Positions 5,270-29,607 of a stretch of 64,000 nt of DNA are shown one piece after another. Made by a program: the position numbers and the translations under genes. Position 1 is the first letter of the stretch, and the number at the start of each line of letters is the position of its first letter. The stretch is from an uncultured Candidatus Rokubacteria bacterium (GTDB lineage Bacteria > Methylomirabilota > Methylomirabilia > Rokubacteriales > CSP1-6). The notes below the pieces were generated by a model. That model worked only from the letters and a program-made list of their open reading frames with translations. It had not been told where the DNA came from and made no database searches. The DNA lies in NCBI GenBank assembly GCA_963762145.1, contig CAVXJS010000010.1, positions 192,001 to 256,000 of the forward strand, given 5' to 3'.

Positions 5270-5285
5270 TGGCACCGCGGTTGCT
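5270..5285 (+). promoter_or_regulatory. Sigma-54 -24/-12 promoter
   Basis: TGGCAC-CGCGG-TTGCT is an exact consensus match, 47 nt before the ATG at 5333. Confidence 0.8.
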
Positions 5286-5332
5286 TTCCCGAGGGGCGTG
5301 GTGTCAATGCGATCCCAGGGAAGGAGACGGAC

Positions 5333-5833
5333 ATGATGCCGGAGAAGGCCACGGTGGAGCGAGCCGAGGAGGACAAGCGCGAGGGGAAGGCCCCGTCGAC
5401 GCAGGCGGGTGAGTTCGTGCGCGAGGAGATGCACCACGTCCGCGAGGGCAAGCACGGGGTGCGGTCCCCCGAGCAGGCGATCGCGATCGGCCTCTCGAAG
5501 GCGCGACGGGCCGGAGTGAATCTCCGGGCGCCGAAGAAGGGGAAGGCGTCGGCGAAGACGCGCCGCGATGCGAAACAGGCGCTGAAGCGTGGGCGGAAGG
5601 GGAAGAAGCCGTCGCCGGCGCGTTCGCGCGCGGCTCACGCGGCGCTGGAGCGCGAGGGACGCTCGGCCGCCTCGAGCGCGGCGGTGGGCCGCCACGCCCG
5701 TGCTGCCGCGCGCCGGCGCGGCCCCCGCGCCCGCGCGGCGGCGGCCGACAAGGCGGTCCGGACCAAGGGCCCGCGTCGCCGCTCCGCGGCGGCACGGAAG
5801 GCGGCGCGGACGCGCGCCCGCTCGGGGCGCTGA
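5333..5833 (+). CDS. Small basic DUF6496-like putative DNA-binding protein
   Basis: RBS AAGGAG; STQAGEFVREEMHHVREGKHGVRSPEQAIAIGLSKARRAG followed by a K/R/A-rich tail. Confidence 0.75.
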   Translation: MMPEKATVERAEEDKREGKAPSTQAGEFVREEMHHVREGKHGVRSPEQAIAIGLSKARRAGVNLRAPKKGKASAKTRRDAKQALKRGRKGKKPSPARSRAAHAALEREGRSAASSAAVGRHARAAARRRGPRARAAAADKAVRTKGPRRRSAAARKAARTRARSGR

Positions 5834-5936
5834 GGGACGGCGCCGAGTACGTTCTTACCCGGTAGGATCGCGCCGGTGGGTTTTCTTGCCGACCGCCGGC
5901 GCGACACCACTTCGTCAAAGAGAACAGGAGGTCCGC

Positions 5937-6089
5937 ATGATCCGCCAGCTCCCTTCCGGTGAGTACCGGCTCTATTCCCGCAAGAAGAATCCGCGCACGG
6001 GACGCCGCCGCAACCTGGGCACGTTCAAGACGCGCGCGGCCGCCCTGCGTCACGAGCGGGCGGTGCAGTTCTTCAAGCGCGCGGGCTGA
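5937..6089 (+). CDS. 50-aa basic hypothetical protein
   Basis: RBS AGGAGG; MIRQLPSGEYRLYSRKKNPRTGRRRNLGTFKTRAAALRHERAVQFFKRAG. Confidence 0.75.
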   Translation: MIRQLPSGEYRLYSRKKNPRTGRRRNLGTFKTRAAALRHERAVQFFKRAG

Positions 6090-6095
6090 GGGCGC

Positions 6096-6896
6096 TCAGC
6101 CCCGGCCGGACTTCTCCACCGCGCCGCGATCTTGTAGATAGCGGGCGACGAGCCAGCAGATCAGCGCCCAGACCAGGCCGGCGCACCAGCCGGCCAGGAC
6201 GTCGGTCGGGTAGTGGACGCCCAGATAGACGCGGCTGCTCCCGATCAGGAACGTGGTGAGCAGGGCCACGGTGAGGACGTACACCTTGGTCCGGCGCCGC
6301 GCCGCGAAGCGAGCGAGCAGGGCGCCCAGGGTGAGGTACAGGATCGCGCCCAGCATGGAATGCCCGCTCGGGAAGCTCGGGGAGCTCACGGCGACCAGGT
6401 GCGGGACGACGTCGGGCCGGCCGCGGGCGAAGAGCTCCTTCATGAGCGTGCTGAGCAATCCGCCGCCCCCCACCGCCACCGTCACGAACACCGCGGCGCC
6501 GTGCTTCCGCTCCAGGACGAGGTATCCGAGCGCGAACAGCGTCACGGCCACCAGGATCGAGCGGCCACCGAGGGCCGTGATGTCGTGCGCCGCCTCCGCG
6601 ACCCACGCCGGGCCGATGGGCACGTGCGGCTGACCGGGGATCCGGAGCAGGCCGAGGAGCCACTCGTCGAGATCGCCCAGCTCGCCCGCGGCGAGCTCCT
6701 CCGCGATCTTGAAGAAGGCGAACAGCGCCAGCAGCACGCCCAGCACCGCCACGAGCACGGAGGCTTCCTGACGGAGGAGCCAGCGCACCCCGGTCTCGAC
6801 GCCGTGACGAACGGCGCGCACGGTCTGCCGCGCGCCGTGGACGTGCCGGCGGCGCCGCTCCTGGTGACCGCTGGTCGGGCTAGCGCTCGATTTCAC
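6096..6896 (-). CDS. PAP2-family membrane phosphatase
   Basis: Catalytic motifs KxxxxRGRP, SFPSGH and SRVYLGVHYPTDV. Confidence 0.9.
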   Translation of the reverse strand: MKSSASPTSGHQERRRRHVHGARQTVRAVRHGVETGVRWLLRQEASVLVAVLGVLLALFAFFKIAEELAAGELGDLDEWLLGLLRIPGQPHVPIGPAWVAEAAHDITALGGRSILVAVTLFALGYLVLERKHGAAVFVTVAVGGGGLLSTLMKELFARGRPDVVPHLVAVSSPSFPSGHSMLGAILYLTLGALLARFAARRRTKVYVLTVALLTTFLIGSSRVYLGVHYPTDVLAGWCAGLVWALICWLVARYLQDRGAVEKSGRG

Positions 6897-7073
6897 GTGG
6901 TCCCGCCCTTCGCCCCATCGTAAATGATGCCGTCGCGGATGCTAGCCGGAGCGCCGGCTCGAGGGCGCAGGTTACCTGGGTGCGAGTAAGTCTTACCGGT
7001 TGCACCCCGACTGCCTCCGCGAGCGCTCGCTGAAAGTGTTCGACTTTGTGAGGCTCGGGCTGCCACGGCATCG

Positions 7074-7089
7074 TGGCACAGTGATTGCC
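7074..7089 (+). promoter_or_regulatory. Sigma-54 -24/-12 promoter
   Basis: TGGCAC-AGTGA-TTGCC lies just upstream of RBS GAGGAGG and the GTG at 7114. Palindrome GTAAGTCTTAC is at 6986-6996. Confidence 0.8.
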
Positions 7090-7113
7090 TGCCAGAGCGG
7101 CGAGGAGGCGTCC

Positions 7114-7665
7114 GTGCACAATTCGCTGCTGCGGGGAGCGCTCGTGGGCCTTCTGCTGATCCCGGTTCTGGCCGGGTGCGTCATCCCTTCCTCGACCACG
7201 CCGCCCACGGCTGAAGTGTTTGCCGCCGATGCCCGCGCGCTCGCCTACGGCCGGACGGCCAAGGAAGTCCTGGAGAATCCCCAGCTCCAGGACAAGCTGC
7301 GCGCGCTGTTCGCCGCCGACTGGAACCCGCCCACCCCGGGAGGGGTCGGCAAGCTGACGCTGGCCGCCCCGCAGTACTTCGAGACGGGCGGGCCCCTGCG
7401 CATGGTCCGCGTCGGGTCTGCCAACTACATCGCCATCACCGGGTGCGCGACGCAGTCCTGCCCGAGCCGCCGCGGGCTCCTGCTGATCCGCGAGGACGGC
7501 GAGGAGCTGCTGGCGCGGCTCGACGACGGCGGCTTCTCGCATCACCATGCCTACGGCGTCGGCGCGGTCGGCGGCGCGGCGGCGTCCATGGCGGCGCTGG
7601 ATAGCGCCCTGGGAGCGCTCACGCGCGCCTCCGACGGGAATCCGTACCCACGCCCTGCGCCGTGA
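7114..7665 (+). CDS. Lipoprotein, Ivy-like fold suspected
   Basis: Lipobox VLAG-C; CxxxxC loop (GCATQSC) in an Ivy-like sequence context. Confidence 0.65.
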   Translation: MHNSLLRGALVGLLLIPVLAGCVIPSSTTPPTAEVFAADARALAYGRTAKEVLENPQLQDKLRALFAADWNPPTPGGVGKLTLAAPQYFETGGPLRMVRVGSANYIAITGCATQSCPSRRGLLLIREDGEELLARLDDGGFSHHHAYGVGAVGGAAASMAALDSALGALTRASDGNPYPRPAP

Positions 7666-7714
7666 GAGTCCGGCCGGGCGTGTTCACCGCCCGATAGTCA
7701 CAGGAGGGCCGGCA

Positions 7715-8164
7715 ATGAGGAAGCTACGCGAGATCATGCGGGCCGGGTTTCTCTTCATGGTGCAGCGCGATGCCACCGTGCGGGAGGCGGTGCAGGTGAT
7801 GACCGACAACAACGTCGGCATCGTGCTGGTGCTCGAGGGCGAGCGCCTGGTCGGCGTCTTCTCCGAGCGCGACGTGGTGCGGCGCGTGGTGGATCGCGGG
7901 CTCGATCCCGACCGCACGCCGGTGGGGGACGTCATGACCACCGAGATCGTCGTCGGCGATCCGGACGAGGACTACCAGTCCGCGATGCGCAAGATGGATC
8001 AGGCGAGCATCCGGCACCTGCTGGTGGTGAAGGGCGCGGAGATGCTCTCGATGATCTCGATCCGCGACCTGATCCGGGTCGACATGCAGGACAAGGGGGA
8101 GGAGATCCGGTTCTTGCGGGAGTATTTGTATCAGGTGCCGCAGGCCCCTGCGCAGATGAGCTAG
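7715..8164 (+). CDS. Stand-alone CBS-domain pair protein
   Basis: RBS AGGAGG; LVGVFSERDVVRR, VGDVMT and SIRDLI motifs. Confidence 0.9.
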   Translation: MRKLREIMRAGFLFMVQRDATVREAVQVMTDNNVGIVLVLEGERLVGVFSERDVVRRVVDRGLDPDRTPVGDVMTTEIVVGDPDEDYQSAMRKMDQASIRHLLVVKGAEMLSMISIRDLIRVDMQDKGEEIRFLREYLYQVPQAPAQMS

Positions 8165-8196
8165 CCGCCACCCCTGCGCCCCCTCAGCGTGCAACC

Positions 8197-8232
8197 CCCC
8201 TCACCCTGCCCTCTCCCCGGAGGGGAAAAGGG
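8197..8232 (+). repeat. REP-like hairpin (CCCCTCACCCTGCCCTCTCCCC-N-GGGGAGAGGG family), degenerate copy
   Basis: Lies between convergent genes and matches about 11 other copies in the window. Confidence 0.8.
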
Positions 8233-8242
8233 TTTAGGGGGG

Positions 8243-9013
8243 TCAGGCGTCCATTGCGGCTCGGTTGAGGGTGCGGCGGGGGGCCAGGGTGCTGCCGTGG
8301 TAGCGGGCGGTGAGCTGGGCGCGGCCGCGGAGCGCGAGCTTCTGGAAGATGTGGGTGAGGTGGGCCTTCACCGTGGCCTCGGTGATGCCGAGGCGATGGG
8401 CGGCCTCCTGATTGCTGAGCCCGCCCACGATGAGGTGGACGATCTCCTGCTCGCGGGGGCTCAGTCGCTCCCGGAACGCCAGCTTGCCCACAGGGGGTTT
8501 GACCGACCGGGCGGCCAGCTCCTCGACGGTCAGGGCGAGCACCCGCTTGCTGGCCCACACCTCGCCCTGGTGCACGACGCGGATCGCCTTGATCAGGCTC
8601 TCGACCGAGGCGCTCTTGGCGAGGATTCCGCGGGCCCCCGTCTTGAGGGCCTCGACGGCCCACCGCTCATCCCGGTCGGCGGCGGCCAGGATCACCCAGG
8701 GTCGCACCCCGTTCAGGCGAAGCTCGCGGCAGATGTCGAGGGCGCCGTCGGTCTGCGCGTCCACGAGCAGGATGTGCGGGAGGCTGCTGCGCAGCGGGTC
8801 TCGCATCGGCGGCGCGGTCAGCTCGGCGACGATCACCAGCGTCGGATCGCTCGCCAGGAGCCGATGCAGGCCGGAACGGAACAGGGAGCTATCGCTCAGG
8901 AGAGCGACGCGGACCGGTGTCGGCGCGACGATCGTCGGCGCCTTCACGAGCGAGTCACCGGCCCTAGCCACTGAGGGTTGCCCGTTGCGACGGATCATCA
9001 TTATCGGACCCAC
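8243..9013 (-). CDS. NarL/LuxR-family response regulator (start uncertain)
   Basis: Degenerate receiver domain plus HTH LSPREQEIVHLIVGGLSNQEAAHRLGITEATVKAHL. Confidence 0.9.
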   Translation of the reverse strand: MGPIMMIRRNGQPSVARAGDSLVKAPTIVAPTPVRVALLSDSSLFRSGLHRLLASDPTLVIVAELTAPPMRDPLRSSLPHILLVDAQTDGALDICRELRLNGVRPWVILAAADRDERWAVEALKTGARGILAKSASVESLIKAIRVVHQGEVWASKRVLALTVEELAARSVKPPVGKLAFRERLSPREQEIVHLIVGGLSNQEAAHRLGITEATVKAHLTHIFQKLALRGRAQLTARYHGSTLAPRRTLNRAAMDA

Positions 9014-9044
9014 GGCTCGCCGGCGCGGCGGTCGATCGCGGTGA

Positions 9045-9311
9045 TCATCGGAGCTCCTTCCTGATGCGTTGGATACCGAGTCGTTCCATCGTCTCCTCGT
9101 CCAGCTCCGAGAGGATCCGTCGGTGGATCGCCTCGACCTCCATGTCGGTCATGTCCTGAACCGCCCGGGTCTTTCCCCTGACGCAGGCGAGATGGGCGTA
9201 GATGCGGTTGTCCGTCGTCCGCGCCGTATCTCGGTTCGTGACCACATACTCCTGTTGGTCCAGGTCCACGAGTTCGTGGCATTCCGGACAGAGAAGGACT
9301 TCGGGAGCCAT
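9045..9311 (-). CDS. Small hypothetical protein with a putative Zn site
   Basis: CPEC...HLAC motif; fills the gap between the TPR and LuxR genes on the same strand. Confidence 0.65.
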   Translation of the reverse strand: MAPEVLLCPECHELVDLDQQEYVVTNRDTARTTDNRIYAHLACVRGKTRAVQDMTDMEVEAIHRRILSELDEETMERLGIQRIRKELR

Positions 9312-9324
9312 GGCTGGGTCGGGT

Positions 9325-12069
<2,745 letters not shown>

Positions 12070-12095
12070 CGTCTTCCCTCTGCGACTAGAGCGCT

Positions 12096-12350
12096 TCAGA
12101 GCCGTACGATGGCAACACCGTGCACAGCCAGCCACTCCGACACCTTGTTCCAGCCGGCCGGGTCATCCGTTTTCCATCTCGCGATGGCGGAACCGGGAAC
12201 GACGACCCAGGGGAGCCTCGTCTGGGTCACGCGCTCAACCAACTGGATCAAGTCGTGATTAGGTCCGAGCTCCGAGCGCAAGCTGTCTACCTGGCTGGCA
12301 GCGAGGCTGCGAAGATCTTGTTGTTCAGAGGACTGAGACACTTCAGCCAC
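12096..12350 (-). CDS. 84-aa hypothetical protein
   Basis: GTG start after AAAGGAG, directly downstream of a sigma-54 promoter; Trp-rich C-terminus. Confidence 0.7.
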   Translation of the reverse strand: MAEVSQSSEQQDLRSLAASQVDSLRSELGPNHDLIQLVERVTQTRLPWVVVPGSAIARWKTDDPAGWNKVSEWLAVHGVAIVRL

Positions 12351-12388
12351 GATGGAAAGCTCCTTTTTCGAGTAGTGGCAGGCGGAAA

Positions 12389-12404
12389 AGCAACGCGCGT
12401 GCCA
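12389..12404 (-). promoter_or_regulatory. Sigma-54 -24/-12 promoter
   Basis: The minus strand reads TGGCAC-GCGCG-TTGCT, an exact match. Palindrome GTAAACTTTAC is at 12510-12520. Confidence 0.85.
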
Positions 12405-12536
12405 GGATACGATCGCACGAACTCCGGCATTGTCACATGCTTGCAGATATGACCCACGACTCCTCCGGTATTAAGTTCCGGACGAAGTCAGAATAAACTT
12501 CCGCAGAGCGTAAACTTTACCGTTGCGGTTACGGCG

Positions 12537-12800
12537 TCACGTCATCAGGAACGCTACGAGTGCCACGAGGCGCGGCGCATTCTTCTCGATCCATTCGCGC
12601 GCGCGGCTCACCTCGAAGTTCTCGGCTTCCGCCTCGGTGGCGAAGCGGGTCTCGGAGATGGGCAGATCGATGTTGCGCTCGCCGGTCGGGGTGGCCTGCT
12701 GGATGGTGGTCACGGCCGACCACTTGCCGTCCTTCATGCGCTCGGACGCGATGGCGATGCTGTAGTCCCCCGGAGCCTCGAACCGCTTTCTCTGCACCAT
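12537..12800 (-). CDS. 87-aa hypothetical protein
   Basis: RBS GAGGTGA; MVQRKRF...RFATEAEAENFEVSRAREWIEK. Confidence 0.7.
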   Translation of the reverse strand: MVQRKRFEAPGDYSIAIASERMKDGKWSAVTTIQQATPTGERNIDLPISETRFATEAEAENFEVSRAREWIEKNAPRLVALVAFLMT

Positions 12801-12804
12801 CAAG

Positions 12805-13035
12805 TCACCTCGCTGATTGTGAAGTTCGCGGGAACGCTTCCTCGGGCCAGAGCCCGGGGACCACGGTCTGGCACGTGTAACGGCAGTGCGCGCACTCGAG
12901 CAATGCCACACTGGGGTGACCGTACTGGGTCACCGTGTGGATGGCTTTGAGGGGCCGGCTACATCGAGGGCACGGTCCGTCGGGGGAGCCTGAGCCCAAT
13001 CCCAATCCCACTGCGCCGCCGTTTAGTCGTCCCAT
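12805..13035 (-). CDS. Small Zn-ribbon-like protein
   Basis: RBS GGAGG before MGRLNGG; CPRC...CAHC motif. Confidence 0.6.
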   Translation of the reverse strand: MGRLNGGAVGLGLGSGSPDGPCPRCSRPLKAIHTVTQYGHPSVALLECAHCRYTCQTVVPGLWPEEAFPRTSQSAR

Positions 13036-13080
13036 GAGCGTGGCCTCCATTCCGACCGCCACCATTCTAGCCTCTTGCTG

Positions 13081-13096
13081 GGCAACGGGCATGCCG
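13081..13096 (-). promoter_or_regulatory. Sigma-54 -24/-12 promoter
   Basis: The minus strand reads CGGCAT-GCCCG-TTGCC. Palindrome GTAATTTCTAC is at 13164-13174. Confidence 0.65.
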
Positions 13097-13192
13097 GATG
13101 CAGAAGTGCGGAGTGGCGCGATGATATGAGGCGGTGTCCGCCGATAGCCGGTAAGAACGCCGTGTAATTTCTACAGCAAGAAGGAGAGAGCG

Positions 13193-13668
13193 ATGCGGAA
13201 GCGTGTGACCAGCCCGTCGCCGCCCGAGGCGGCCATGCAGGACCCCGAGTGGCTCGATCTGGAGCAGGTCGCTCAGGTCGAGGTGACGTCGGAGGACCCC
13301 GCGTACCCGATCGAAGCCGCGCTGGTGCCCGGCGTCGACTCCGGGTGGCGGGCCGCGCAGCCCGGCGAGCAGACGATCCGGCTGATCTTCGATCGGCCGC
13401 AGCGCGTGAGTCGCATGTGGCTGCTCTTCATCGAGTCGGATACGCTCCGCACGCACGAGTTCGTGCTGCGCTGGTCGCCGGACGGCGGGCGGTCGTTCCG
13501 CGAGGTCCTCCGCCAGCAGTGGAACTTCGGGCCGCCGGAGACGATCCGCGAGGCGGAGGACTATCGCGTCGAGCTCGCCGGAGTCACGGTGCTGGAGCTG
13601 GCGATCACCCCCGACAAGAGCGGGGAGAGGCACGGGCGTCGCTCGCGCAGTGGCGACTGGCCGGCTAG
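13193..13668 (+). CDS. Galactose-binding-like (carbohydrate-binding) protein with a 1-nt frameshift in the G run at about 13622
   Basis: RBS AAGGAG; WRAAQPGEQTIRLIFD and VLRQQWNF motifs. Adding one G gives the natural end PDKSGGEARASLAQWRLAG*. Confidence 0.7.
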
Positions 13669-13702
13669 CTGCGCGTCGCCGACGCCCGCCCCGGCTCAGC
13701 TG

Positions 13703-14038
13703 CTACTTGGGAAGGGTCGGCGCGCCCGGGACCGGCGGCCCGCAGGCGGTGCTCCCCGGCTGCCGGACCTGGCCGGGACCGCAGGGGAAGGTCGGCGAGG
13801 TACGGCCCGGGTCGCTGATGCTGGGCGGTACCGTGGTGCCTGGGGTGCCGGGCACGCCCGGGGTGCCTGGCGTGGTGCTGCTCGGCGGGCGCGGTGTTGG
13901 TGCCGGCGTCGGCGCGGGCGGAGCTCCGGGCGTCGGGAGGCCCGGGCTGCTCGGGGCAGTGCCTGGCGTCTGGGCCGCTGCCGTCCCGGTCAGGATCAGG
14001 GTCGTCGCCACGATGGTCAGGGAGGATTTCCAGGTCAT
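13703..14038 (-). CDS. Small secreted Pro/Thr/Gly-rich protein
   Basis: RBS AAGGAG, signal peptide (…TAAA/Q), PGTPG repeats and two C-terminal Cys. Confidence 0.7.
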   Translation of the reverse strand: MTWKSSLTIVATTLILTGTAAAQTPGTAPSSPGLPTPGAPPAPTPAPTPRPPSSTTPGTPGVPGTPGTTVPPSISDPGRTSPTFPCGPGQVRQPGSTACGPPVPGAPTLPK

Positions 14039-14064
14039 GGGTGGCTCCTTTCCTGACGTCAGTT

Positions 14065-14080
14065 CGCAAGGCGTGTGCCG
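14065..14080 (-). promoter_or_regulatory. Sigma-54 -24/-12 promoter
   Basis: The minus strand reads CGGCAC-ACGCC-TTGCG, 26 nt before the ATG at 14038. Confidence 0.75.
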
Positions 14081-14191
14081 GGATACCGAAGCTCGCATCG
14101 GGGGCGGGAGTCGGGGAAAGGCGTAAGTGCTGGGCGCGGTCGGGAAGAGTGTGCTGGGTGGAGCTTACCGACTGGCCTTGGGTCGCTCGGC

Positions 14192-14226
14192 CCCCTCACC
14201 CTGCCCTCTCCCCGGAGGGGAGAGGG
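14192..14226 (+). repeat. REP-like hairpin
   Basis: CCCCTCACCCTGCCCTCTCCCCGGAGGGGAGAGGG. Confidence 0.85.
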
Positions 14227-14235
14227 GGAGATCGG

Positions 14236-14604
14236 TTACTGGAGGAGGCGGCGGATGGCGCGACGGAGCGCTGTGATCTTGAAGGGCTTGGGGAGCAGGG
14301 GGGCGTGGATGACCTTCAGGAAGCCTTCGAAGGCGGCGTTGTTGGCCAGCGGCGAGACGAAGACGAAGTGTGGGGGGTTGCTCGGCCAGCGACTCCGCAC
14401 CGCGGAGTAGAGGCTCGGGCCGTCCACCTCGGGCATCATCAGGTCGGAGACGATCAGGTCGTAGCACTTCCGGCCGAGCAGGCGCAGGGCTTCGAAGCCG
14501 TTGCCGCTGGCGTCCACCTCATGGCCGTCTGCCCGGAGGCTCGAGACGATGAGGTCCCGGGCGCCCTGGTCGTCCTCGACCACGAGAATGCGGCCGGTGG
14601 TCAT
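14236..14604 (-). CDS. Single-domain response regulator (receiver)
   Basis: ILVVEDD, DLIVSDLMMPEVDG and KPF motifs. Confidence 0.9.
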   Translation of the reverse strand: MTTGRILVVEDDQGARDLIVSSLRADGHEVDASGNGFEALRLLGRKCYDLIVSDLMMPEVDGPSLYSAVRSRWPSNPPHFVFVSPLANNAAFEGFLKVIHAPLLPKPFKITALRRAIRRLLQ

Positions 14605-14644
14605 CTGAGTGCTCCCCTGGAGTCCCATGACGGCTCCTGTATGG

Positions 14645-14660
14645 TGCATCGCCAGTGCCA
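14645..14660 (-). promoter_or_regulatory. Sigma-54 -24/-12 promoter
   Basis: The minus strand reads TGGCAC-TGGCG-ATGCA. Palindrome GTAGGAACTAC is at 14737-14747. Confidence 0.7.
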
Positions 14661-14743
14661 CGCGGAAAGCGACATGACAGCGGTACCTTACGAGCCAGGC
14701 GCCGCGAGGATGTTCGGCGCCTGACGCTTGTGGTCTGTAGGAA

Positions 14744-17101
14744 CTACCTGGGGCCGCCCGCTGAGCGCATGGCCTGCCACACGCGCTCGGGACTCACGGG
14801 CATGTCGAGGTGGCGGACGCCCAGGGGAGCCAGGGCGTCGTTGACCGCGTTCATCAGGGCGGGCAGGGCGCCCACCGTGCCGGCCTCACCCACGCCCTTG
14901 GCTCCCAGCGGGTTCACCCGGGTGGGCACCTCGTGGGCGTCCACGTCGAAGAGCGGCACCTCGTCGGCCCGCGGCATCGCGTAGTCCATGAACGACCCCG
15001 TGAGCACCTGGCCCGTCTCGTCGTAGGTCAGCTCCTCGGCGAGCGCCTGGCCCAGGCCCTGGACGGCGCCCCCGTGGATCTGCCCCTTCACCAGCAGCGG
15101 GTTGATCATGCGGCCGACGTCGTCCACCACGGTGTAGCGCAGCACGCGCACCACGCCGGTCTCGGCGTCCACCTCGACCTCGCAGACGTGGCACCCGTTC
15201 GGGAAGGTGACCGCGGGCGGCGTGAACGCGGCGGTATCGCTCCAGCCGGGCTCGAGGCCAGGCGGCAGCGCGCGCGGCTGATACGCGGTGCGGGCCACGC
15301 GGCTCCACGCGACGTCGCGGTCGGTGCCGGCGACGACGAACTTCCCGTCGCGGAGCGCCACGTCCTCCGGCGCCGCCTCCAGCAAGTGCGCGGCGATGCG
15401 GCGGCCGCGCTCGATCGTCTTCTCGGTGGCGCGCAGCACCGCCGAGCCGCCGACCGAGATGGCGCCGGAGCCGCCGTTGCCGCGGCCCGCGTCGAGCGCG
15501 TCGCTGTCGCCCGAGAAGACCTGGATGCGGTCGGGCGTCAGGCCGAGCCGGTCGCTCACGATCTGGGTGAACGCGGTCTCGTTGCCCTGGCCCATGGAGG
15601 TCGAGCCCGCGAAGAGCGAGACCGAGCCGTCGGGGTTGACGCGCACCTCCGCGGTGTCGGGGTTGACCGCGGTGTAGGGGCCGCCCGCGACCTCGATCGG
15701 GTTGGCGATGCCGAGGCCCAGGAGCTTGCCGTGCGCGCGGGCCTCGGCCCGCCGCCGCTCGAAGCCCGCGCGGTCGGACTGGGTCAGCGCCATCGTCATG
15801 CTGCGCTCGAAGTCGCCGCAGTCGTAGGTGAAGACGAGGCCGGTCTTGAACGGCATCGCGGAGGGCGGGATCAGGTTGCGGCGGCGCAGATCGACCGGGT
15901 CGATGCCGAGCTCGCGCGCGGCCACGTCGATCACGCGCTCGATCGCGTAGGTCGCCTCGGGGCGGCCGGCGCCGCGGTACGGCCCGGTGGGCGTGGTGTT
16001 GGTGAACACGCCGGTGCTCTCGATGTGGATCGCGGGCGTGGTGTAGACGCCGGCGAGGCCGCCCACGTTGTTGGTGGCGGGGCCCGCGCTGCGCGGGGTC
16101 AGGTACGCGCCGATGTCCACCTTCAGCGCGACGCGCAGGCCGAGGAAGCGGCCGCCCGCGTCGAGCGCCAGCTCCGCGGTGGTCACGTTGTCGCGGCCGT
16201 GCTCGTCGCTCAGGAAGCCCTCGCGGCGGCTCGACGTCCACTTCACCGGCCGGCCGAGGCGCTTGGCGGCCCAGAGGACCAGCACCAGCTCCGGATAGAT
16301 GCCGCTGCGCATGCCGAAGCTGCCGCCGACCTCGCTCGTGACCACGCGCACCTGGCCGTGGGGCACGCGGAAGATCTGCTCGGCGAGGATGGACCGGAGC
16401 CCGTGCGGGCCCTGGATGCCGGTGTGCAGCGTGTAGCGGCCGGTGCGGCGGTCGAACTCGCCGACCGCGGCGCGCGGCTCCATCGGCGCGGCGGCCACGC
16501 GCGTCACCACGAAGTCGAGCCGCGTGACGTGCGCGGCGCTCGCGAAGGCGCGCGCCACCGCGTCGCGCGAGCCGGCCTCCCAGACGAAGGCCACGTTGTC
16601 GGGCGCCTCGTCCCAGACCGCGGGCGCGGCGCCGCTCGTGGCGCGCGCGGCGCCCGTCACCGGGGGCAGGGGCGCGTAGTCGAGGGCCACCAGCTCCGCG
16701 GCGTCGGCGGCCGCTTCCGGGGTCGTGGCCACCACGAGCGCGATGGGATCACCCACGTGGCGGACGCGCTCGCGGATCAGCGCGGGGCGCGGGGTGGGGA
16801 ACGCGGGCGCGCCGTCGCGGCGCTTGCGCGACCCATCGGTCGGCAGGTGGCCGAGGCCGTCGGCCGCGAGGTCGGCGCCGGTGAGCACCGCGAGCACGCC
16901 GGGCGCGCGGAGCGCCGCCGCGGGGTCGATGCCGCGGATGCGGGCGTGCGCGTGGGGCGAGCGCAGCACCACCGCGTAGGCCTGGCGCGGCAGGCTCACG
17001 TCGTCGGAGTAGCGGCCGAGCCCCTGGACCAGGCGCGGGTCTTCGAGGCGCGAGACGGACTGGCCCATCGCGAATTTCTGGACGGTGATCGGCTCGCTCA
17101 T
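14744..17101 (-). CDS. Xanthine dehydrogenase-family molybdopterin-binding subunit (CoxL-like)
   Basis: REDPRLVQG-like N-terminus, [21 protein letters not shown] and GAKGVGEAG motifs. Confidence 0.92.
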   Translation of the reverse strand: MSEPITVQKFAMGQSVSRLEDPRLVQGLGRYSDDVSLPRQAYAVVLRSPHAHARIRGIDPAAALRAPGVLAVLTGADLAADGLGHLPTDGSRKRRDGAPAFPTPRPALIRERVRHVGDPIALVVATTPEAAADAAELVALDYAPLPPVTGAARATSGAAPAVWDEAPDNVAFVWEAGSRDAVARAFASAAHVTRLDFVVTRVAAAPMEPRAAVGEFDRRTGRYTLHTGIQGPHGLRSILAEQIFRVPHGQVRVVTSEVGGSFGMRSGIYPELVLVLWAAKRLGRPVKWTSSRREGFLSDEHGRDNVTTAELALDAGGRFLGLRVALKVDIGAYLTPRSAGPATNNVGGLAGVYTTPAIHIESTGVFTNTTPTGPYRGAGRPEATYAIERVIDVAARELGIDPVDLRRRNLIPPSAMPFKTGLVFTYDCGDFERSMTMALTQSDRAGFERRRAEARAHGKLLGLGIANPIEVAGGPYTAVNPDTAEVRVNPDGSVSLFAGSTSMGQGNETAFTQIVSDRLGLTPDRIQVFSGDSDALDAGRGNGGSGAISVGGSAVLRATEKTIERGRRIAAHLLEAAPEDVALRDGKFVVAGTDRDVAWSRVARTAYQPRALPPGLEPGWSDTAAFTPPAVTFPNGCHVCEVEVDAETGVVRVLRYTVVDDVGRMINPLLVKGQIHGGAVQGLGQALAEELTYDETGQVLTGSFMDYAMPRADEVPLFDVDAHEVPTRVNPLGAKGVGEAGTVGALPALMNAVNDALAPLGVRHLDMPVSPERVWQAMRSAGGPR

Positions 17102-28836: not shown

Positions 28837-29574
28837 TCACCATGGCTCGGGGGGAGGGAAAGAGGGAAGAGAAGGGGGAGAAAGGGGAGGAACCTTCACG
28901 AGCTCGGCGGCGGGCGTGTCGGGGCGCGCCGCGGCCGGACGCGGGAGCTCCTGGCCAACCCGCTCGCGCAGGCGCTCGAGCAGCTCGGGATAGGACGAGA
29001 CGCGCAGGACGCGGTTGAACTGGGCGCGGTAGTTGTTGACGAGGCTGATCCCGTCGATCGTGACGTCCCGCACCAGCCAGCGCCGGTCGAGGTAGACCAT
29101 CTCGTGATCGAGGAGGACCTGGCGGCCGCCGCGCCGGCCGATGGCGGTGTGCACCATCGTGTGATCGCGCGCGGGGGCCTCCCCGAGATAGCTGACGGTG
29201 ATGCCCCCCTTGCTGCCGTCCACCTCGGCGACCGAGGCCAGCCAGTACACGAACCCGCGCTGCACGAAGCTCGCGAAGATGGAGCGGAAGTCCGTCCGCT
29301 CGGTCGCGGTCCGAGCGCTCCACTGGACGGCCCCCAGCGCCTGCTCGGCGGCTCCCGAGAAGTCGAAGGCGCGACCGATGAGCTGACGGACCGCGGTGAG
29401 GCGGTCGGCCGGCCGCTCGGCTGTCGCCGGATCGGTGATGATCTGGTTGGCCTCTGCGAACGTCGCGCGCAGCGAGTCGGTCGCAGTGGGAGCGTCGGCC
29501 TCGGCTCCGCCATGGGCGATGAGGACCAGCCAGGCGAGCGCAACCAGGGACACGAGGGCTGATCGGGTATGCAT
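28837..29574 (-). CDS. MlaC/Ttg2D-family periplasmic protein
   Basis: Signal peptide; FDF-ALG-W and WLVRDVTIDGISLVNNYRAQF motifs. Confidence 0.85.
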   Translation of the reverse strand: MHTRSALVSLVALAWLVLIAHGGAEADAPTATDSLRATFAEANQIITDPATAERPADRLTAVRQLIGRAFDFSGAAEQALGAVQWSARTATERTDFRSIFASFVQRGFVYWLASVAEVDGSKGGITVSYLGEAPARDHTMVHTAIGRRGGRQVLLDHEMVYLDRRWLVRDVTIDGISLVNNYRAQFNRVLRVSSYPELLERLRERVGQELPRPAAARPDTPAAELVKVPPLSPPSLPSFPPPEPW

Positions 29575-29591: not shown

Positions 29592-29607
29592 AGCATCGTC
29601 CGTGCCA
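29592..29607 (-). promoter_or_regulatory. Sigma-54 -24/-12 promoter
   Basis: The minus strand reads TGGCAC-GGACG-ATGCT, directly upstream of the MlaC-like gene. Confidence 0.65.

Follow-up and report, generated by a model that had tools for sequence, protein, structure and literature searches.

A Dense Cluster of Putative Sigma-54 Promoters in a Rokubacteria Genome, and an Upstream Palindrome That Probably Joins Five of Them to a Dispersed Stress and Envelope Regulon

Introduction

What controls a 9.4 kb run of mostly small genes in which one sigma-54 (RpoN) promoter motif follows another, six in all? The run, which we call the island, lies in a 64 kb stretch of DNA from an uncultured Candidatus Rokubacteria bacterium. 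The whole stretch is the window, and coordinates without a contig label are window positions. Rokubacteria are abundant uncultured soil bacteria, and their regulation is essentially unstudied. Sigma-54 holoenzyme sits at the -24 and -12 elements of its promoters in a closed complex, and an activator that binds a distant enhancer and hydrolyses ATP opens it. A preliminary description of the window proposed that the six promoters (P1 to P6) serve one RpoN-run stress or dormancy programme. Our reading, to which we give a probability of roughly 0.6, is that all six are genuine sigma-54 promoters and that P2 to P6 belong to a stress and envelope regulon defined by an upstream palindrome and an enhancer-binding protein (EBP) that would recognize it. 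Judging from sequence, the island appears to be the densest cluster of a dispersed, lineage-specific sigma-54 regulon of roughly 26 to 50 promoters, and not a self-contained unit.

Results

Sigma-54 Promoter Motifs

The source genome (G000; 6.26 Mb in 25 contigs, labelled C1 onward; approximately 70% G+C) was annotated with a crude gene caller, which gives 6,244 genes, 83% coding sequence and an intergenic share of 17.4%. The preliminary description listed six 16-nt strings, at 5270 and 7074 on the plus strand and at 12404, 13096, 14080 and 14660 on the minus strand (it quotes the 5′ end for minus-strand promoters), and all six are present. Each is aimed, as claimed, at a start codon, 24 to 48 nt beyond the end of the 15-nt core, and each of these starts has a Shine-Dalgarno-like box. 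Three match TGGCAC-N5-TTGC perfectly: P1 (5270..5284, +; 48 nt before the ATG at 5333), P2 (7074..7088, +; 25 nt before the GTG at 7114) and P3 (12390..12404, -; 39 nt before the GTG at 12350). P5 (CGGCAC-N5-TTGC; 14066..14080, -; 24 nt before its start) and P6 (TGGCAC-N5-ATGC; 14646..14660, -; 41 nt) have one mismatch each, and P4 (CGGCAT-N5-TTGC; 13082..13096, -; 46 nt) has two. At all six sites the -24 GG and the -12 GC are exactly 10 nt apart.

How much does such a match mean? Bare GG-N10-GC is uninformative in this genome, with 171,426 copies, or 27 per kb. The perfect motif occurs 57 times and is intergenic in 55 cases, to be compared with the 17.4% intergenic share; the two other copies, one of which is P2, merely overlap over-called gene starts. 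The classes with mismatches are also mostly intergenic genome-wide (cGGCAC..TTGC, 33/38; TGGCAC..aTGC, 17/20; cGGCAt..TTGC, 7/9), and all six island sites come from classes that are 78–97% intergenic. Equal motif density in shuffled DNA had been named as grounds for giving up the proposal. For perfect matches the densities are far from equal (3 in the window vs 0.08 expected; none of 100 shuffles reaches 3), but at up to one mismatch the window does not rise above the shuffles (6 vs 3.07 expected; 10 of 100 shuffles reach 6), and this non-significant count was dropped as support. The weight of the case therefore comes from placement and conservation.

The genome contains 232–233 sites of the good classes, i.e., more than 230 candidate promoters. 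At the resulting mean density of 0.37 per 10 kb, about 0.0016 windows with six or more sites are expected genome-wide; the six in the island tie with C19:237135-245801 as the densest sigma-54 cluster of the genome (P2 is missing from the density scan only because the crude gene caller overran it). The only other good site in the window is the seventh promoter of the preliminary description, located at 29593..29607 (-) before mlaC (28837-29553), whose identity is confirmed. The machinery that was to be looked for is also encoded: there is one rpoN (Sigma54_DBD, 210.5 bits), and 21 strong matches to Sigma54_activat (PF00158) plus one split match give about 22 EBPs.

Conservation in Relatives

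Searching 40 relatives at the DNA level, we found syntenic stretches, 77–85% identical, in several genomes of the same genus; 15 of these were retrieved, and orthologues were placed in them by tblastn. Conservation of the motifs upstream of orthologues, a check suggested at the outset, ranges from 4/5 up to 14/14 same-genus loci. Before the receiver gene (P6) the -24 and -12 elements are invariant in 14/14 loci, with a spacer that varies. P3 is perfect in 4/4 loci, although the 84-amino acid protein encoded behind it is just 49–55% identical. The motif is kept in 8/9 loci holding the orthologue of the P4 gene, in 7/7 holding that of the P5 gene, and in 4/5 for P2, as TGGCAT in the relatives. 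Homologues of the gene behind P1 stand in non-syntenic places, and 9/12 of them have an upstream match with up to two mismatches (five of these with up to one). Genes internal to the putative operons served as negative controls: at up to one mismatch, no motif precedes the CBS gene (0/5 loci), the LuxR gene (0/4) or the tetratricopeptide (TPR) gene (0/6).

Could the motifs have arisen by chance, given a G+C content of 70%? The sheer number of bare GG-N10-GC strings and the one-mismatch count inside the shuffle range might speak for this, but the idea can be set aside, because the perfect matches exceed expectation, the intergenic bias is about 100-fold, and up to 14/14 orthologous promoters keep the motif while spacers vary, which already contradicts it. 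The six island motifs very probably function as sigma-54 promoters, as their placement and conservation indicate.

An Upstream Palindrome

Do the six promoters answer to the same activator? The alignment of receiver-gene promoters gave the first sign of a shared element, an invariant block GTArTTCCTAC approximately 87 nt upstream of P6 that is kept even where the upstream gene differs. Five of the six island promoters (P2 to P6) have GTA-N5-TAC or a one-mismatch variant of it 74–116 nt upstream. Strict copies are GTAAGTCTTAC (6986..6996), 88 nt before P2; GTAAACTTTAC (12510-12520), at -116 from P3; GTAATTTCTAC (13164..13174), 78 nt before P4 and some 20 nt before a divergent F5/8C-like gene; and GTAGGAACTAC (14737..14747), 87 nt before P6, where it overlaps the stop codon of the adjoining 785-amino acid gene. 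P3 has in addition the variant GTATTAAGTTC (12468-12478) at -74, and P5 has the one-mismatch copy GTAAGCTCCAC (promoter strand; 14158..14168) 88 nt upstream. These four strict copies are the only ones in the window, where 0.68 are expected per 64 kb. A one-mismatch copy lies at -82 from the mlaC promoter, which probably belongs to the same regulon.

The palindrome is conserved in position as well. It is strict in 14/14 P6 promoters (-85 to -88, including loci with a different upstream gene), in 8/8 P4 promoters (-77 to -89) and in 4/4 orthologous P2 promoters (-87 to -99). Of the P5 promoters, 5/7 share a GTAAnnnnCAC variant (-87 to -90); of the P3 promoters, 5/5 retain the variant (-74 or -84) and 2/5 have a strict site.

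Below we use module for a GTA-N5-TAC palindrome upstream of a sigma-54 promoter motif. The genome has 108 copies of GTA-N5-TAC, of which 62 are intergenic, and 26 of these 62 lie at -165 to -35 from one of 233 good sigma-54 sites (1.7 expected; binomial p = 1.5e-24). Of all 64 three-plus-three palindromes with this spacing the word comes out on top, and spacing 5 alone is enriched (26, vs 1–2 at the twelve other spacings, 0–4 and 6–12). Its extended consensus is cGGTAAnnnTTACCg and its core form GTAr-N3-yTAC. Between -135 and -60, 22 of 232 promoters have a strict copy and 33 more a one-mismatch copy, compared with 2 and 7 in a control interval, suggesting roughly 45–50 member promoters. Distances run from -68 to -158, with signs of helical phasing (a Rayleigh test peaks at 10.0 bp; R = 0.46, uncorrected p = 0.004). 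Most promoters have one strict palindrome together with half-sites or a one-mismatch second site, e.g., P3 and the psiE promoter described below.

We searched 151 genomes of the phylum for the combined palindrome-plus-sigma-54 pattern. By hand tallies of the search tables, the pattern exceeds control in the same genus (g1; 8/8 relatives, 54 vs 8) and in the same-family genera g19 (22 vs 10), g23 (16 vs 6) and g27 (9 vs 2); it is not above control in the other families and classes among these genomes. The module thus appears to be specific to a Rokubacteriales lineage.

These results bear on the claim of a single RpoN programme, which for P2 to P6 is supported by their shared conserved palindrome; the promoter at 5270 lacks it. 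P1 is probably sigma-54-dependent but, from its upstream sequence, would answer to another EBP. One could extend this to the whole island and suppose that its sigma-54 promoters are real but serve several unrelated EBPs, so that the clustering reflects gene neighbourhood and no common programme. Besides P1, two promoters with one-mismatch variants only would fit such a view, as would the number of EBPs and candidate promoters in the genome and the existence of other dense clusters without the palindrome. It is nevertheless quite unlikely in the face of four strict palindromes in one 9.4 kb stretch, their placement at -78 to -116, conserved across species, and the genome-wide association.

Two unusual arrangements of the word may be mentioned here. 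A reversed order of half-sites, TTAC-N3-GTAr, is found before the gene for a 50-amino acid protein (5855-5865), in three relatives approximately 95 nt upstream of the sigma-54-like motifs that DUF6496 homologues have, and in the A+T-rich stretch preceding the sigma-54 motif of the C19 EBP gene itself (locus L074, 2660-2680); it may represent a second binding mode. At C15:256965-257010, two overlapping GTA-N5-TAC words stand just 27–31 nt ahead of a sigma-54-like site, behind which come a 166-amino acid gene and an EBP gene (C15:254839-256317). This geometry is unfit for activation and may reflect repression or chance.

Candidate Activators

Which protein might read the palindrome? Three paralogous NtrC-type EBPs stand out: C9c (C9:95473-96831), C19a (C19:238387-239757) and C15b (C15:346802-348202). 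They are one another's closest paralogues (C19a and C9c are 60% identical, C15b 55%), share the domain order receiver, Sigma54_activat, HTH_8, and are the only ones among 18 aligned EBPs with the recognition-helix signature NNNKTRAA..LG...KTLHNK in HTH_8. C9c is followed by a PAS-HisKA-HATPase kinase gene (C9:93660-95471). Within 3 kb of EBP genes in the source genome, strict modules occur beside C19a and C9c only; at C15b we see two one-mismatch sites, common to its promoter and to a divergent one, and one-mismatch sites are also near two other EBPs, C11c and C9f.

We then asked whether palindrome and subfamily stay together across genera, using 20 subfamily genes from other genera with 4 kb of flanking sequence on each side. 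Modules are found at 10/20 loci, with 35 strict palindromes vs 3.1 expected. As control we took 80 generic NtrC-type loci from other phyla, which came from the search with the C19 EBP and its generic NtrC-type matches in many phyla; modules occur at 2/80, and these two are the closest homologues. At the genus level, subfamily EBP matches are found in 3/3 genomes of g1, 3/4 of g19 and 3/3 of g23 (the last again a hand tally), and genera g15, g18, g20 and g31 have neither an excess of the pattern over control nor a subfamily EBP match. All the EBPs stay below the NCBIfam equivalog cut-offs (the candidates score best with AtoC, at 457–463 bits vs a cut-off of 714), so their family names give no function. 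On this sequence evidence, the subfamily of C9c, C19a and C15b is the leading candidate for the cognate activator of the palindrome.

The mechanism would then be as follows. The upstream activator sequence would be GTAr-N3-yTAC, with its centre some 75 to 160 nt before the -24 element. A response-regulator-type EBP (receiver, AAA+, HTH_8) would bind it, loop to the closed sigma-54 holoenzyme and spend ATP to open the promoter.

Another protein might occupy the palindrome instead, for instance the NarL/LuxR-type regulator encoded in the island behind P3, or an architectural or repressor protein, and modulate the promoters without driving them. Single 11-bp palindromes are typical of many dimeric helix-turn-helix regulators, and the non-activating geometry at C15:256996/257000, just 27–31 nt from the sigma-54-like site, would suit such a factor. 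We consider this unlikely, since in several genera the palindrome is found together with one and the same EBP subfamily, the three paralogues have a recognition helix in common, and the distances, with their hint of 10-bp phasing, fall in the range of enhancer sites.

The order psiE-PCC-EBP is kept in the same-genus genome G002 and not in G143 or G110 (four loci), an observation from which we draw no conclusion.

Regulon Content

We are interested in what the module drives outside the island. By Pfam matches, its genes elsewhere in the genome include CsbD, a three-BON OsmY-like protein, an OmpA lipoprotein, PsiE and DUF1059; further ones encode DUF748/AsmA, Poly_export/SLBB, GT2 and GT4 glycosyltransferases, an ABC exporter and a receiver, and several small membrane or secreted proteins have no family. 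A telling order is found at C9:89170-96831: the EBP, the PAS histidine kinase, an 86-amino acid gene, a module, a lipoprotein gene, otsB and otsA. The lipoprotein is a paralogue of the one encoded in the island (7114-7665), and otsB and otsA are next on the same strand, so that trehalose synthesis also appears to be under sigma-54. Hallmark protective genes of the wider set are thus CsbD, the three-BON protein, OmpA, PsiE and DUF1059 directly, with otsB/otsA immediately after a lipoprotein gene that the module drives.

Other sigma-54 clusters without the palindrome contain two Usp and two Hsp20 genes, CBS, DksA/TraR, Transgly_assoc, DUF308, PNPOx, OmpA and a P-type ATPase. Together with the genes behind the modules, they suggest that sigma-54 is broadly a stress and envelope sigma factor in this organism. 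Many of them lie in a second sigma-54 stress region with many small genes and at least eight perfect motifs (C21:1130000-1190000), where we find Usp (twice), Hsp20 (twice), CBS, DksA/TraR, DUF308, OmpA, the P-type ATPase and an EBP gene (C21:1182215-1183615). GTA-N5-TAC does not occur in that region, and another activator is presumed there. At C21:208609-212583, an EBP gene is followed by three genes with sigma-54 motifs whose products begin like type IV pilins (…FTLIELMIVVAIIGILAAIAIP), which looks like a PilR-type arrangement.

The function of the island regulon would accordingly be read from its companions as a stress, desiccation, osmotic and envelope protection programme, to which the island would contribute small effectors peculiar to the lineage and a second tier of regulators (the single receiver and the NarL/LuxR-type regulator). 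The stress or dormancy programme of the preliminary description is borne out only by this association with CsbD, BON, OmpA, PsiE and otsB/otsA-adjacent modules elsewhere. Its rejection of nitrogen control agrees with our results: no nitrogen-assimilation genes stand behind the six promoters, which rules out an NtrC regulon. The most NtrC-like EBP of the genome (C9:725393; 539 bits vs a cut-off of 558.6) is outside the subfamily with the helix signature.

A competing view of the role is a switch for envelope or exopolysaccharide remodelling, or for development and surface differentiation, with no general or desiccation stress response behind it. The targets include many envelope genes (OmpA, DUF748/AsmA, Poly_export/SLBB, GT2, GT4, the ABC exporter, MlaC, lipoproteins and secreted low-complexity proteins), in agreement with a published survey whose theme is the control of the bacterial exterior by sigma-54 (Francke et al. 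2011; PMC3162934). CsbD, the BON/OsmY-like protein, PsiE, DUF1059 and the module-adjacent otsB/otsA, in contrast, are hallmarks of general and osmotic stress, and they make a purely envelope or developmental switch possible but doubtful. The two views overlap and are not exclusive.

Discussion

Several points weigh against placing P2 to P6 in a palindrome-defined stress and envelope regulon, or against the evidence used for it. The one-mismatch motif count of the whole window is within the range of shuffles, and the label "intergenic" depends on a crude gene caller with 83% coding sequence. The compared genomes are kin, and the orthologue counts are non-independent samples. P1 has no GTA-N5-TAC element upstream in either the strict or the one-mismatch scan. 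Many characterised EBPs use two or more full sites, which is common, if not universal, for seeding the hexamer, and a single strict palindrome per promoter is unlike them. Half of the subfamily loci in other genera (10/20) are without a module within 4 kb, and g27 has the pattern but no subfamily match at E <= 1e-165. The products of the island itself are mostly without a named family or known function, so that the stress label is attached by association. A short group-2-like sigma-70 factor (C5:61133), which scores 320 bits with the RpoS model and is below its cut-off, could run a conventional stationary-phase response. Finally, a contig from RNA libraries (12165-12447; 96% alike) crosses the predicted P3 start, which fits read-through or DNA carry-over.

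This last contig comes from a comparison with soil RNA libraries, in which 13 runs contain 6–13% of sampled words and four runs were compared through short assembled contigs only. Soil metatranscriptome assemblies hold near-identical fragments of some island genes, and the contigs cover, e.g., 12618-13052, 14340-14624 and 8242-8739. Since starts, strands and levels cannot be read from them, they neither support nor refute the promoters.

How does the system compare with known ones? The mechanism is of the standard textbook sigma-54 type; the regulon, the enhancer word and the EBP subfamily are undescribed in the literature searched, in which we found no paper combining Rokubacteria and sigma-54 and, among the results listed, none placing CsbD or BON genes under RpoN. 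We know of no described EBP site that GTAr-N3-yTAC matches. The comparisons that follow draw on general knowledge of the known systems, except where a source is cited. Like NtrBC, AtoSC and ZraSR, the candidates have the order receiver, Sigma54_activat, HTH_8 and, in one paralogue, an adjoining PAS-HisKA-HATPase kinase, and their modules have an inverted repeat roughly 100 bp upstream of a -24/-12 promoter. Unlike those systems, three paralogues share a helix here, and the targets would be tens of promoters of small stress and envelope genes in place of one metabolic operon. PspF/psp and the E. coli ibpB sigma-54 promoter are precedents for stress and small heat-shock genes, and Hsp20 genes have motifs here too; those cases involve one or two operons and a receiver-less activator, in contrast to the more than 230 candidate promoters and receiver-type activators of this genome.

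The likeness in content is rather to the general stress responses of RpoS (E. coli), SigB (Bacillus) and EcfG (Alphaproteobacteria). Shared genes are otsB/otsA, OsmY-like BON, CsbD and PsiE, and the other sigma-54 clusters add Usp, Hsp20, Transgly_assoc and DUF308/HdeD-like genes. RpoS, SigB and EcfG act on sigma-70-family promoters and are governed by sigma abundance or partner switching, whereas the island has -24/-12 promoters, which need an ATP-driven activator. No protein of the genome is above cut-off for the RpoS or SigB models (TIGR02394, TIGR02980), and there are three group-1/2 sigma-70 factors. The system may work like a general stress response and yet stand outside these three families. 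The DosR (DevR) regulon of Mycobacterium tuberculosis resembles the other sigma-54 clusters in its Usp, Hsp20, CBS-pair, P-type ATPase and PNPOx-like genes, and the island also encodes a NarL-family regulator; DosR differs in acting on sigma-70-type promoters through a box of its own.

The sigma-54 survey of Francke et al. (2011), as far as its accessible text goes, has much in common with this genome: many lipoprotein, outer-membrane, lipid-transport, polysaccharide-export and glycosyltransferase targets, and a predominance of AtoC-like type Ia activators. In that text osmY and OmpA do not occur, and the passages on a "general stress response" concern Sigma-B of Bacillus. Relative to it, the cytoplasmic stress proteins and a defined enhancer word are new.

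A wider proposal, which we put forward tentatively, is that in a family-level clade of Rokubacteriales sigma-54 and EBPs reading GTAr-N3-yTAC have replaced the role of RpoS, SigB or EcfG. An ATP-gated general, osmotic and desiccation response would then run on -24/-12 promoters, with the island as its densest target cluster. Three predicted parts come out of the analysis: the promoter class, the enhancer word of 11 bp, and the activator subfamily, which has three members and one putative cognate kinase. From them we would expect some 26 to 50 operons to be induced together, plausibly by drying or osmotic stress. If so, a gene set of the general-stress type would be under the tightly off-by-default sigma-54 mechanism, its members would provide markers for the stress state of these organisms in soil metatranscriptomes, and the island would be a source of lineage-specific protective proteins and second-tier regulators. 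Candidate stress effectors are the lipoprotein family found upstream of otsB/otsA, the 84-, 87- and 88-amino acid proteins and the zinc mini-protein, all of them lineage-specific.

Genes and Minor Features of the Island

Behind P1 lies the gene of a 166-amino acid protein whose N-terminal part is DUF6496 (PF20106, 24.1 bits, cut-off 24) and whose tail is Lys/Arg/Ala-rich (5333..5833, +); by its composition it might bind DNA. The next gene, for a basic mini-protein of 50 amino acids (5937..6089, +), has no sigma-54 motif of its own in the window and is probably co-transcribed from P1. A separate sigma-54 promoter was considered for it and ruled out, the only string there being GG-N11-GC. Its orthologue in one relative (G004) is preceded by a perfect motif, and in four other genomes it comes after a different gene.

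The putative P2 operon (7114..8164, +) consists of the lipoprotein gene (7114-7665; lipobox LAGC) and a gene for a CBS-pair protein (7715-8164). The lipoprotein family has no Pfam match and is almost confined to Rokubacteria/Methylomirabilota.

On the minus strand, the genes in 8243..12350 form a probable operon transcribed from P3: the 84-amino acid protein comes first (12096-12350), followed by a secreted TPR protein with a long Gly/Ala/Pro-rich stretch (9325-12072), an 88-amino acid Cys-rich protein (9045-9311) and the NarL/LuxR-type response regulator (8243-9013). This order is kept in G020, and the internal genes are without a sigma-54 motif in the window and in most relatives. In another relative (G001, contig C375), where the 84-amino acid and TPR genes are missing at this locus, a perfect sigma-54 motif stands 136 nt before the 88-aa/LuxR pair itself and is accompanied by a strict palindrome at -132; control by sigma-54 appears to outlast the rearrangement. 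The low-complexity part of the TPR protein comprises approximately 200 residues of poly-Gly, Gly-Ala and Pro-rich sequence (about 11230-11830, -) between the N-terminal part and the TPR/YbgF-like region, and relatives align over the C-terminal 590 residues only.

The putative P4 operon (12537..13035, -) encodes the zinc mini-protein (76 amino acids, CxxC...CxxC; 12805-13035) and an 87-amino acid protein with a weak DUF6566 match (12537-12800). P5 precedes the gene of a secreted Pro/Thr-rich protein of 112 amino acids (13703..14041, -), and P6 that of a single-domain response-regulator receiver of 122 amino acids (14236..14604, -; Response_reg, 61.9 bits).

Two genes within the island, a PAP2 gene and the F5/8C-like gene (13193-13670, +), have no sigma-54 motif. 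The F5/8C-like orthologue of one relative (G009, contig C41) does have CGGCAC-N5-TTGC 30 nt before its start, unlike the window and 10 other loci. In the window this gene is frameshifted near 13615-13630: the orthologues in G020 and G001 end in ...PDKSGGEARASLAQWRLA(D/G) and a stop at about 158 amino acids, while the window reads ...PDKSGERHGRR... and runs on, with the proper ending in the next reading frame. A run of G seems to have lost one base there, which would make the gene a pseudogene unless the assembly is at fault.

That the region might be a mobile genomic island was considered and ruled out, its gene order being common to several same-genus genomes. An REP-like, G+C-rich palindromic element, with the core CCCTCACCCTGCCCTCTCCCC followed by GGAGGGG..., occurs in intergenic gaps, often right after operon ends. 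It is found at 8198, 14193, 17172, 20029, 22405, 24880, 24953 and 55321 in the window, and a regular expression for the core finds 148 copies in the genome.

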